Assembly (NCBI GenBank): GCA_051294905.1
Contig: CM119372.1
Span: 22,012,001 to 22,076,000 of the forward strand
DNA length: 64,000 bases
Direction: 5' to 3'
Source of the DNA: Botryllus schlosseri
Taxonomy: Eukaryota
Of this stretch, positions 22,254 to 36,767 are shown one piece after another. The translations under genes were made by a program, and so were the position numbers. Positions within the stretch are counted from its first letter, which is position 1. Every line of letters starts with the position of its first letter. A model generated the notes under the pieces. That model was not told the origin of the DNA, did not search any database, and saw nothing but the letters and a program-made list of their open reading frames with translations.

Positions 22254-23309
22254 GAGGAATTATGTCCGAAGATAGTACAACTTTCGACGCGTCATTCAAG
22301 GACCATAGTGATTGTGGTTTGAGTCTTTCTATGTCAATACAAATGCAGACTTCTCCCTTTTGCTTCGCATCTTTTTCGTCCGTGTATAGATGTACAAAAC
22401 GTCTTCCCATCTTAGCTATGCCTTCCACCATAATAGGGGGTACTCGGTTCTTTCGAGTGGCATGAAACAATGATGTTAGCCCTTCCGGGTTAATCCACTG
22501 TTGCATTTGCGGATTCTGTCCTTTAGTATGTCCCTGTTTTGCCGCAATCCCATGATCTGAGATCATTATTCTGTCTTTCTCAATCCATTCCGTCGGATTA
22601 TCATAGCCATATTTCATAGCACATGCAAAAGGGTGCCAACCCCTCTTCTGTAGCATACACTCTGTATGCCTGAGATGTTTAATCAATTTTCTGTTAAGCT
22701 TTTCTTTCTCATTTTTTGTCATTCCGCCTTTCTTGATAGCTATCCAGGCCAGTGGGTCACCTTCTTCCACTGCCGTGTTTTCAACAAACACTCTTGATAG
22801 CGCATCCGCAGTGAATATTTCTGACGTAGAAATATGAACCACGTTCCTGATATTGTAGGCGCTGATCACAGCCACCCATCTCATCATTTGCGGGTCATCT
22901 GAAGCTTGTTTGTTACCCTCAGTGGCTTTCTTCAATATTCCCATTACTCCTTTGTTGTCCGTAAGTATTGATACAGGTCTACCCAGAAGTATAGAACCCC
23001 ATTTTTCGAAAGCTCGTACTACCGCCAACATTTCCTTTTTACACGCGCTGTATGAACTTTTTTCATTAGGTTTCCATTTCTTTGAGTAATAAGCCACGGG
23101 GTATATCTGTTTGTGGGGAATGGGTTCTTCGTTCTCCGTTTGGTATAGGACTGCACCCATCCCGTCCAACGCCGCATCTGTTTGTATGAAGATTGGTAGC
23201 CCCATTCGTAAATGAAAGAGCGTTTTCGGTCGTAGTAGAACATCACGCATTTTCGTGTAATTATCAAACAGCGTTCGTGTCCATTTAACAGGTACTCGCC
23301 TGCTTTGTG
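22225..23309 (-). pseudogene. pol: pol 3' half: RT connection, RNase H, Tpt1/KptA domain
   Basis: RNase H motifs IQTDAALDGMGAVLYQ, PVAYYSKK, KEMLAVV, LTDNK, RW, ADALSR. Tpt1 motifs KHLRH, GW, KDRI, AKQGHT, LFHAT, EGIAKMGRRFVHL. Stop at 22225; no integrase follows. Confidence 0.92.
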
Positions 23310-23349
23310 AGTAGTAGTATATACGATCGCTCGCGAACTAACGTTTTTT

Positions 23350-23770
23350 GCATGGGGTAGTATAGGCGGGGTGGCATGGTGCCGAGAAAACCGGGGGTGG
23401 CATGGTGACCCTTATGTCTTATGGCGGGGGTGGCATGGTGCCATTGTGTCTTATGGCTGCGGTGGCATGGTTACCTTTTCGGGTATAGGCTGCGGCGGCA
23501 TGGTGCCGTGAAAACTCGTGGTGGCATGGTGACCCTTATAACTATAGGCTGCGGTCGCATGGTGCCACTGTGTCTTATGGGTGCGGCGACATGGTTACCT
23601 TTTTCGGGTATAGACGGCGGCGGCATGCTAACGTGAAAACTCGTGGTGGCATGCTAATGTTTTAGGGTATACGTGCGGCGACATGCTAACGACGATAAAT
23701 GTGTCTGTCATGTATTCTTACGGGATCTGTGATGAGTCGCCATGTGTAATTCTTATGGGTGCGGTCGTGA
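23350..23770. repeat. Subterminal ~30-bp repeats (GGTGGCATGGTG core); mirrored at ~36300-36720
   Basis: Repeated GTGGCATGGTG/GCGGCATG motifs next to the terminus. Confidence 0.88.
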
Positions 23771-24244
23771 TTCGTACTTTCAGGCATCTCTCGCGCGGTG
23801 TTGAATAGTCACCAACAATAACCGCACAAACGGAAACGTGGCTTGCAAGAGGATTAAGCAGTGCGACCTATATTCCGAATGACCTGCGCACTGAATTGTT
23901 TCACGGCCAACCGCGTGCTACTATCGATTATTGCACTAGACCAGTCAGTGTGAAATAGTTTGATCGTAAATTATGATATATGATGTCGTAGTTTAGTCGT
24001 GTCAAATGACCGATCGTGTTCTCTTTCCTCGCTATTGATTGCTACCTGAATAATACTTTCGGCTTATTCGCTGTTTCGCGCCTACAGAATAGTCTGCTGT
24101 TCACAGTCGCGACTTCACCGCGATAGCGCAATTTTCACACCTCGATCAGTAGAACAACACCGCGCTAACCCAGTTGTCGAAACACATAGGTCATACATTT
24201 TACGTGAAAATGAAATATTGTATTGCGGTATACGAATATGCAAA

Positions 24245-34600: not shown

Positions 34601-35187
34601 GGAAAGCCGGATCGCGAATAGAGTTGTAATGTCTCATTACTTGTTTCAAATCAATGTGCGTATAATTTCGAAATGTGACTGGATCAAAGTTGGTAGTCAT
34701 GTTTGTCAAACATATTTCAATTCACACTATGCCAAGGTTCAAATATTTCATTCTGGATTATCTGAATTTACCTTTAGTACATCCCGCGAATGGATTCCGA
34801 CACCGCACTATAGCATTCTTAATAATAAGGTCTCTAGGATTTTCAATCAACAATACTGGAATTTTTTGGTAATGTTAGAGTTGGCAAATGATTAGTTGTG
34901 TGTTTTTGTTAAGCGTTTGATTTCTTAATAATAAATACTACGATTGTATGTGCAATATAGGTCGCGCGCTGCGTAATCCTCTTGCAAACAGGCCGCGTTT
35001 CCGAATTTCAGAACCGGACGTATTTAGTGTGTCACACAGATCAAAACCCCGCCACGGACATCTGTTTTTTCAAAATCGCACAGCGCACTGCGCTTTAGTG
35101 AATTTCCTGTTTAGCCAATCCAAGGATTATACAAAGACTGTTAACTCCCTCAATACCACGCACCTAATTCTATAAATTTCGAAGGAT

Positions 35188-35829
35188 TTGCTGATGACTC
35201 TCACTTTACCAAACGATATGGCATCGAACAGCGTCAGCAGTATGCAAGTCGGAGCAGTTTCAAATTTTCACGTCGGCGTCAAATTCGTCTCATCACCCAA
35301 AAGAGGTGGCGTTAGTCAATATCTCAAAGGTATATTCATCGACGGCAATAACGAAGAGATATCTTTCACGTGTTTCAATCGTGATTTGTTCGGGAAAATT
35401 GAGAAAGCATTCACCAAACGAAAAAAACTCATGATCAAATCCGGTTGGGTTCAAATTAATAAATTTACTGGAAAACCCGCTGTATTACTTGGTCGGGCTT
35501 CGTCAGTAACTCTACATGGAAAATCGAGACATACGACTGAAGAATACCCATAATTGACCTGTGAATCAGTATACGGAAATAAAGATGAATACGTATCGAT
35601 CGCCGCTACTTGTGTTTCTCGAGAGGAGAAGATGGTCAATTCTGGTGCCGGAAAGGAGTTGAAATTATACAGTTTTACATTAAAAGACGATACCGGAGAG
35701 GTGGTGTTGGATCAATGGAACAAAACCTCGCTCGTACCCGGGAAGAAATATCAGCTCACTCGTGTTAAAAACTGTGTCGGCAGATTGAAAATCGATCAGT
35801 TAACTAGACTTGTCGAATTGAAAGAATAG
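35188..35829 (+). pseudogene. Tandem OB-fold ssDNA-binding protein with internal stop, right arm
   Basis: Mirror of 24245-24886 with the same TAA at 35551-35553; one amino-acid difference (NKAS vs NKTS). Confidence 0.65.
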
Positions 35830-36767
35830 TTTGCATATTCGTATACCGCAATACAATATTTCATTTTCACGTAAAATGTATGACCTATGTGTTTCGACAA
35901 CTGGGTTAGCGCGGTGTTGTTCTACTGATCGAGGTGTGAAAATTGCGCTATCGCGGTGAAGTCGCGACTGTGAACAGCAGACTATTCTGTAGGCGCGAAA
36001 CAGCGAATAAGCCGAAAGTATTATTCAGGTAGCAATCAATAGCGAGGAAAGAGAACGCGATCGGTCATTTGACACGACTAAACTACGACATCATATATCA
36101 TAATTTACGATCAAACTATTTCACACTGACTGGTCTAGTGCAATAATCGATAGTAGCACGCGGTTGGCCGTGAAACAATTCAGTGCGCAGGTCATTCGGA
36201 ATATAGGTCGCACTGCTTAATCCTCTTGCAAGCCACGTTTCCGTTTGTGCGGTTATTGTTGGTGACTATTCAACACCGCGCGAGAGATGCCTGAAAGTAC
36301 GAATCACGACCGCACCCATAAGAATTACACATGGCGACTCATCACAGATCCCGTAAGAATACATGACAGACACATTTATCGTCGTTAGCATGTCGCCGCA
36401 CGTATACCCTAAAACATTAGCATGCCACCACGAGTTTTCACGTTAGCATGCCGCCGCCGTCTATACCCGAAAAAGGTAACCATGTCGCCGCACCCATAAG
36501 ACACAGTGGCACCATGCGACCGCAGCCTATAGTTATAAGGGTCACCATGCCACCACGAGTTTTCACGGCACCATGCCGCCGCAGCCTATACCCGAAAAGG
36601 TAACCATGCCACCGCAGCCATAAGACACAATGGCACCATGCCACCCCCGCCATAAGACATAAGGGTCACCATGCCACCCCCGGTTTTCTCGGCACCATGC
36701 CACCCCGCCTATACTACCCCATGCAAAAAACGTTAGTTCGCGAGCGATCGTATATACTACTTTTGTG

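Follow-up and report, generated by a model that had tools for sequence, protein, structure and literature searches.

An abundant, almost wholly palindromic element family with Polinton-type ends in Botryllus schlosseri, probably a helper-dependent satellite

Polintons, also called Mavericks, are defined by their polymerase and integrase genes (PMC5499653, PMC11296320; here and below, publications are cited for the portions of their text that were available). The commonest end motif of vertebrate Mavericks is (AGT)2//(ACT)2, accompanied by a 6-bp target site duplication (TSD); intact copies measure 12.7-24.6 kb, with terminal inverted repeats (TIRs) of 46-1,447 bp and a mean of 402 bp (PMC8097293), and published TIRs reach up to 744 bp in C. 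elegans. Butterfly Polintons carry gene-duplicating TIRs of about 2 kb, and their polB-less copies remain mobile (10.1101/2025.02.07.637071). Non-autonomous Polintons are a recognised category under Repbase names such as Polinton-1N1 and Polinton-N1A_NV, the latter encoding a capsid protein (PMC11296320). The proposed Polinton cycle runs through an extrachromosomal single strand, which takes the shape of a racket through pairing of its TIRs and is then copied by the element's own protein-primed polymerase and integrated (PMC4196379; 10.64898/2026.07.28.741278). Here we describe a 64,000-nucleotide window of the Botryllus schlosseri genome (GenBank assembly GCA_051294905.1, contig CM119372.1, positions 22,012,001 to 22,076,000 of the forward strand; coordinates below are those of the window) containing a palindromic element with Polinton-type ends and arms of 6.25 kb, which we consider likely to be a non-autonomous, helper-dependent Polinton/Maverick satellite that replicates via a giant stem-loop.

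The element occupies positions 23310-36761 (13,452 bp), of which 93% is arm sequence. Self-BLAST returned a single inverted match, 23313-29564 against 36761-30509, and the left arm (23313-29564, plus strand, 6,252 bp) and right arm (30509-36761, minus strand, 6,253 bp) align over 6,253 columns at 99.79% identity, with 12 mismatches and 1 gap, on either side of a unique 944-bp loop (29565-30508). TTTGTG stands at both 23304-23309 and 36762-36767, a perfect 6-bp TSD in the one copy examined; the chance of a 6-bp flank match at fixed places is about 3e-4. A preliminary description of this locus, made from the letters alone, had proposed a palindrome with arms of about 6.25 kb, a 944-bp spacer and a 6-bp TSD, all of which self-BLAST and comparison of the flanks confirmed. 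Its AGTAGT termini hold for the right end, which terminates in (AGT)2 on the minus strand; the left terminus has three units, (AGT)3 at 23310-23318 on the plus strand. Ends and TSD agree with the vertebrate Maverick motif (PMC8097293), as had been suggested, and the premise that Polinton TIRs are usually much shorter stands against the vertebrate range given above. Inside each terminus lie GC-rich tandem repeats with periods of 32, 59 and 124 (23360-23653, plus strand, mirrored at 36421-36714), and an 11-bp core motif is present in eight copies in the left array, reaching 23655; this array is likely to be an origin or a protein-binding site.

Four read runs were placed on the flank, left arm and loop: three contig runs (X1, possibly the assembly's own sample, X6 and X9) and one RNA run (X24). 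The ratio of median summed contig depth between arm and host flank was 3,498 in X1, 868 in X6 and 358 in X9, that between loop and host was 1,647, 307 and 96, and that between arm and loop was 2.1, 2.8 and 3.7, in the same order; an arm/loop ratio near 2 is what a palindrome family would give. The depth contrast in all three contig runs, together with a second related element at 60579 in the same window, documents multiple dispersed copies. The loop is clearly common to many of these, and the element belongs to a propagating family that inherits it. By likeness, the family pieces in X1 comprise 43,664 records at 99% or more, 50,325 at 95-99% and 42,060 at 90-95%, compared with 99.8% between the two arms. 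Arm depth varies several-fold over 23704-30620, being lowest on the OB-fold gene described below and highest at 28600-29415, and many family deletions occur in the reads, for example at 26879-27094; the family is therefore modular, and the OB-fold gene is not part of every copy.

The 13 differences between the arms, described earlier as scattered, are unevenly spread: the outer 4,471 bp contain 2 and the inner 1,781 bp the remaining 11, and at two places five differences cluster together (Kolmogorov-Smirnov p=2e-4; outer-half test, 2/13, p=0.011; five within 100 bp, p=4e-4). At the single arm indel (29363), the right-arm allele is not an error, being common in the family according to each of the three contig runs. 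All 17 listed arm sites at which the element departs from much of its family carry the same letter on both arms. Among these sites are 24320, 24640 and 25599, where the letters are near-private, found at a depth of 17-40 among 43,000-91,000, and the in-frame stop of the OB-fold gene is present on both. Because the near-private variants and this stop sit on both arms, the arms evolve together, mutations of the lineage being copied from arm to arm.

Pfam searches at E<=0.05 found no family in any of the 18 six-frame segments of arm and loop, nor in the 6 of the second element; genes for a protein-primed polymerase (pPolB), retroviral-like integrase, ATPase, protease, and major and minor capsid proteins thus went undetected in the palindromic element. 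No open reading frame (ORF) within it exceeds 125 codons, no coding frame crosses the arm/loop border beyond shuffle expectation (p=0.08-0.46), and no coding relics above shuffle level were found in the mid-arm, the inner arm, the loop or the second element. The Polinton core genes so appear to be absent or decayed beyond detection, and since they are undetected, integration would have to occur in trans, as the preliminary description had held. Matches to the terminal 17-mer were also considered as possible helper relatives in the viral and metagenome collections, and the 26 + 1 loci recovered were all (27/27) chance matches of at most 19 exact bases.

On the evidence of sequence comparison and fold modelling, the frame at 24856-24245 (minus strand) is a gene, encoding a tandem OB-fold, RPA70-AB-like predicted single-stranded-DNA-binding protein (SSB); it is interrupted by an in-frame stop at 24521-24523, and its mirror copy at 35218-35829 (plus strand) has the same stop at 35551-35553. 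The frame contains 2 stops, a number so low being rare in shuffles (p=0.002). An uninterrupted natural relative of the product, P0001, is 94% identical, and a second, P0002, has 25% identity (phmmer, E 4.7e-4); a phmmer search for distant SSB relatives over 1.84 billion proteins returned only these two. Structure matches in the Atlas to RPA-type OB proteins reach TM-scores of 0.66-0.81, with feature matches up to 0.95, the best Atlas match being an unnamed, mostly cnidarian cluster. Foldseek placed Teb1 AB and RPA70 at the top of the PDB matches (E 5e-5 to 2e-4, from a low-confidence model with a pLDDT of 49.2), in agreement with a tandem OB fold. Neither the OB-fold protein nor the loop frame was recognised by Pfam or PHROGs.

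Upstream of the OB-fold gene, its promoter at 24867-24903 (minus strand) consists of TATAAA at 24903-24898 (-32) and an initiator with +1 at 24871, a geometry that the general TATA and initiator consensus motifs produce at 1 of 12,414 arm positions. In X24, RNA depth peaks over the OB-fold gene at 5-9, compared with mostly under 2 elsewhere, and four RNA reads end at 24868 plus three letters, at the initiator, running into what we take to be a template-switch adaptor. Transcription of family copies begins at this position. The loop contains a candidate gene of its own, a 91-codon open frame at 30127-30402 (plus strand), which is no longer than shuffles give; two other natural copies also have it open, with 85/91 and 86/91 identities.

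Any explanation has to accommodate the palindromic structure, the ends and TSD, the abundance of the family, the undetected core genes, the OB-fold gene with its promoter, and the near-private variants that the arms share. Replication as a satellite would do so as follows. A helper Polinton would provide the protein-primed polymerase with its terminal protein and the integrase in trans, since the element keeps the cis-acting parts, AGT ends and subterminal array, without the enzymes. The helper polymerase would start at an AGT end and displace one strand. This strand would snap back on itself to form a stem of 6.25 kb closed by a 944-nt loop, the racket intermediate taken to an extreme; the stem would recreate a duplex origin and be copied again, and the resulting duplex would be inserted by the integrase at a stagger of 6 bp. 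Within the stem, repair or template switching would keep the arms near-identical, least so beside the loop, and because of it a new mutation, the OB-gene stop included, would come to stand on both arms. The unequal AGT counts would fit slide-back or jump-back initiation, as terminal repeats permit sliding or jumping back at protein-primed initiation (PMC2175359).

The founder of the family may have arisen by a template switch, in which the polymerase moved onto the displaced or the nascent strand and so copied a Polinton end back on itself, the palindrome having since spread as a unit. Copy-back has a precedent in the palindromic by-products of phi29, whose SSB is reported to keep short palindromic DNAs from arising during protein-primed replication (PMC2175359, citing Esteban et al. 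1997), and the near-symmetric inverted duplication of one end, 93% palindromic, has the geometry of copy-back or snap-back defective genomes as defined in a review (PMC13506859). Between a copy-back founder and gradual expansion of the terminal repeats we regard the balance as about even. By analogy with phi29, a palindromic parasite that carries a predicted SSB would be a puzzle. The OB-fold gene may be a parental terminal accessory gene duplicated by the fold-back, or an aid in displacing 13 kb of strand; the RPA-like predicted SSB that intact copies express probably assists strand-displacement replication, and the element examined here, its OB-fold gene being broken, would be a passenger for the SSB function too. 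The length of the element, close to that of an intact Maverick, may reflect packaging.

Several points weigh against this account. The 13 arm differences collapse to 5 events, the cut between outer and inner arm was picked post hoc, and assembly polishing could partly explain the 3.4-kb difference-free middle of the arm. The variant sites compared are 40 of 722 rows, 17 of these 40 being in the arm, and summed contig depth is not equivalent to copy number. The RNA start rests on 4 of 342 reads, which derive from other family copies. Fold models of the OB-fold protein are poor (pLDDT 33.5 and 49.2), the single-sequence fold being unusable, and Pfam also misses the intact OB-fold protein, so decayed core genes might escape it. 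A search with P0001 against the viral_contigs and metagenome_contigs collections found no relative, and no helper Polinton was seen there. In protein-primed replicons the canonical OB fold has been described as atypical (10.1101/2021.03.25.437074), a literature search found no placement of an RPA-like SSB in Polintons, and an SSB should hinder rather than help snap-back. Finally, among the pieces listed in the four runs none bridges the flank/arm junction or the loop/arm borders, as expected with contigs of high-copy repeats; the structure rests on the assembly and on indirect read evidence. Of 96 joints, the 15 listed likewise include no strand change, and no mass start or end site was seen in the runs.

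The strongest competitor, less probable in our judgement yet a serious one, is stepwise growth of the TIRs in a Polinton derivative through internal deletion and repeated extension by recombination or conversion, with the arms homogenised in the chromosome and neither copy-back nor a stem-loop cycle involved. Butterfly Polintons, with their gene-duplicating TIRs of about 2 kb and their mobile polB-less copies, speak for it (10.1101/2025.02.07.637071), the arm differences are patchy near the loop, and recombination is suggested by the second element, which has only blocks in common with the first. However, a loop common across a high-copy family and an arm/loop depth near 2 fit a single fixed architecture, and near-private variants are found on both arms even of a fresh insertion. 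Stepwise growth differs from a stem-loop satellite in the origin of the palindrome and in the site of homogenisation, not in the helper.

We regard as improbable a foldback-type cut-and-paste transposon (MULE/Foldback, Galileo-like), moved by a DDE transposase, that captured an RPA-like gene and whose AGT ends are coincidental. RPA-like genes are cargo of other transposons, the Helitrons, which counts in its favour. Foldback elements, too, typically have composite arms that contain tandem motifs, and TIR expansion is described in several superfamilies (PMC3169594). The TSD of MULE/Foldback elements, however, is 8-10 bp and their arms average 93% identity (PMC3169594), compared with 6 bp and 99.8% here, and AGT repeats are found at both ends of the palindrome and also on the second element.

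A one-off copy-back defective genome, made once and integrated here, was the origin favoured in the preliminary description. Its geometry matches the copy-back/snap-back definition (PMC13506859), but loop and arms are high-copy in three runs, the loop frame occurs in two other copies and a second, related end of this kind lies in the same window, leaving a single event very improbable. Least probable of all is an assembly artefact, a fold-back chimeric read or mis-joined repeat, for which the want of a bridging read among the pieces listed and the difficulty of assembling very high-copy repeats would speak, because the two unlike flanks continue a single host gene in one orientation up to a perfect TSD, as the preliminary description had argued in part, the AGT counts differ between the ends, one of the 13 arm differences is a common family allele and run X1 contains the letters that are nearly private to this copy.

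A helper-dependent satellite thus remains the likeliest reading, and it bears on a wider question. The Polinton replication model of excision, a racket-shaped single strand, protein-primed copying and reintegration was derived purely from sequence; a family of high copy number, nearly all of it racket handle, offers a natural test of the model, with arm homogenisation, loss of identity near the loop, slippage in AGT count and free stem-loop DNA as predictions. If the reading is true, defective-interfering-type genomes of DNA viruses can turn into heritable, abundant genome parasites, animal genomes tolerate hundreds or more of 13-kb palindromes, and such satellites bring their own replication accessory. 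Only tentatively, and with more doubt than confidence, we raise the possibility that animal Polinton viruses have a standing class of snap-back satellites that integrate. These palindromes, equal to the helper in size, would cycle between the chromosome and a stem-loop capped by terminal protein, have each new mutation copied to both arms, use helper capsids for packaging, be more numerous than the helper, and express an RPA-like SSB through which helper replication is tuned to their own advantage.

Further features were identified within the palindromic element. A 41-bp tandem repeat of 7.3 copies lies at 28397-28693 (plus strand, mirrored at 31381-31677). Two adjacent short dyads of 10 bp and 11 bp (29545-29564, mirrored at 30509-30528) end exactly at the arm/loop border; a comparable pair occurs at 0.24% of arm positions, the border dyads having been spotted post hoc, and they could mark the switch point or a binding site. 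An internal terminus-like motif, AGTAGTAT, is present once per arm, at 26612 (plus) and 33462 (minus), and may be a chance occurrence or a relic end. Folding of the loop gave z=-2.7 from an input that took in 20 bp of each arm, and constitutes no evidence for loop structure; an Rfam scan of the window returned no match.

The second element (60579-64000, plus strand) is a diverged relative that runs off the window, with an AGT-repeat start, related subterminal repeats and two blocks collinear with the first element: the non-coding left-arm blocks at 25278-25811 (81%) and 26244-26561 (90%), both plus strand, correspond to 62018-62513 and 63454-63772. It is preceded by TACACC, a candidate TSD, and by a run of GTACACC motifs at 60520-60578. 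No OB-fold gene was found within its visible part (60579-64000). Observed CpG exceeds expectation in the arm (ratio 1.15), the loop (1.35) and the second element (1.39), compared with ratios of 0.82-0.93 in host pol and flank; at these values of 1.15-1.39, neither element has any sign of methylation decay.

The insertion site is the pol gene of a minus-strand, envelope-bearing retroelement, so the earlier placement in pol was correct. On the upstream side of pol (36768-38598, minus strand), Pfam identified a G-patch and a reverse transcriptase; on the downstream side (22225-23303, minus strand), RNase H and a C-terminal Tpt1/KptA RNA 2'-phosphotransferase domain (PF01885, E 1.9e-9, above the cut-off). 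Each side, read separately, is free of internal stops up to the TSD, and therefore a young insertion is suggested. No integrase was seen in this pol. The adjoining frame at 21552-22259 (minus strand, 235 aa) has no Pfam match; by eye it resembles a second Tpt1-like lobe.

On the downstream side of the insertion the host retroelement occupies 11073-23303 (minus strand). Downstream of pol it has a 962-aa envelope-like frame with a signal-like start and a C-terminal hydrophobic stretch, for which neither Pfam nor PDB sequence searches gave a match. Further frames there are 244, 200, 151 and 136 aa long, and the region also contains 91-bp repeats (13539-13807) and a coiled-coil frame of 673 aa, which is cut at about 11150. 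No long terminal repeat (LTR) pair or bounding inverted repeat was found, and both ends adjoin other repeats (38586-38788; about 11140). The only longer relatives of the host pol were two generic Gypsy-type pols, matching over the RNase H part. Over 18400-23295 the retroelement is low-copy, with diverged second copies (pieces with 19-41 differences), and is covered by almost no X24 RNA reads. Elsewhere in the window, an ordinary non-LTR retrotransposon reverse transcriptase (RVT_1) is encoded in two overlapping frames at 3676-5285 (plus strand).

Compared with known systems, the cargo protein shares with RPA70 DBD-A/B and the Tetrahymena Teb1 AB domains (PDB 1jmc, 3u58) the same two tandem OB folds over about 200 residues; it differs in standing alone, at 11-18% identity, with DNA binding that is only predicted. 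Hairpin and palindromic derivatives are known for the yeast pGKL1 and Neurospora kalilo linear plasmids. Like these and the phi29 by-products, the element would be an inverted duplication of one end of a terminal-protein genome, replicable by a helper polymerase; those by-products, however, are transient or extrachromosomal, whereas the element is integrated and inherited, and belongs to a large family with an expressed gene. Foldback/MULE elements such as Tm1 (PMC3169594) are also non-autonomous, with long modular inverted arms containing tandem motifs, but are short, with other termini, a TSD of 8-10 bp and lower arm identity. Nothing comparable is described in the available text of PMC6431247 and PMC8502044, and a literature search, the reach of which ended short of Repbase entries and most subscription journals, found no description of a near-wholly palindromic Polinton family, so that a prior description is possible.

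The non-autonomous Polintons of Repbase, compared by name and description, share the category with the element; Polinton-N1A_NV, however, retains a capsid gene (PMC11296320). Butterfly Polintons resemble it in long TIRs that duplicate a gene at both ends and in mobility without a polymerase gene, but keep core genes and a large unique middle (10.1101/2025.02.07.637071), whereas the middle here is 0.9 kb and contains no detected core gene. Polintons/Mavericks in general (PMC8097293; anole element, PMC3014272) share with the element the end motif, the 6-bp TSD, the presence of TIRs and a length in the intact range. In contrast to them, it is 93% palindromic, very high in copy number and without detected pPolB, integrase, ATPase, protease or capsid, and its 6.25-kb arms are three times the longest TIRs found in the accessible descriptions (about 0.05-2 kb). 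Since polymerase and integrase define Polintons, the element is not a strict member of the group, and its sequence features suggest that it works like a Polinton-dependent element.

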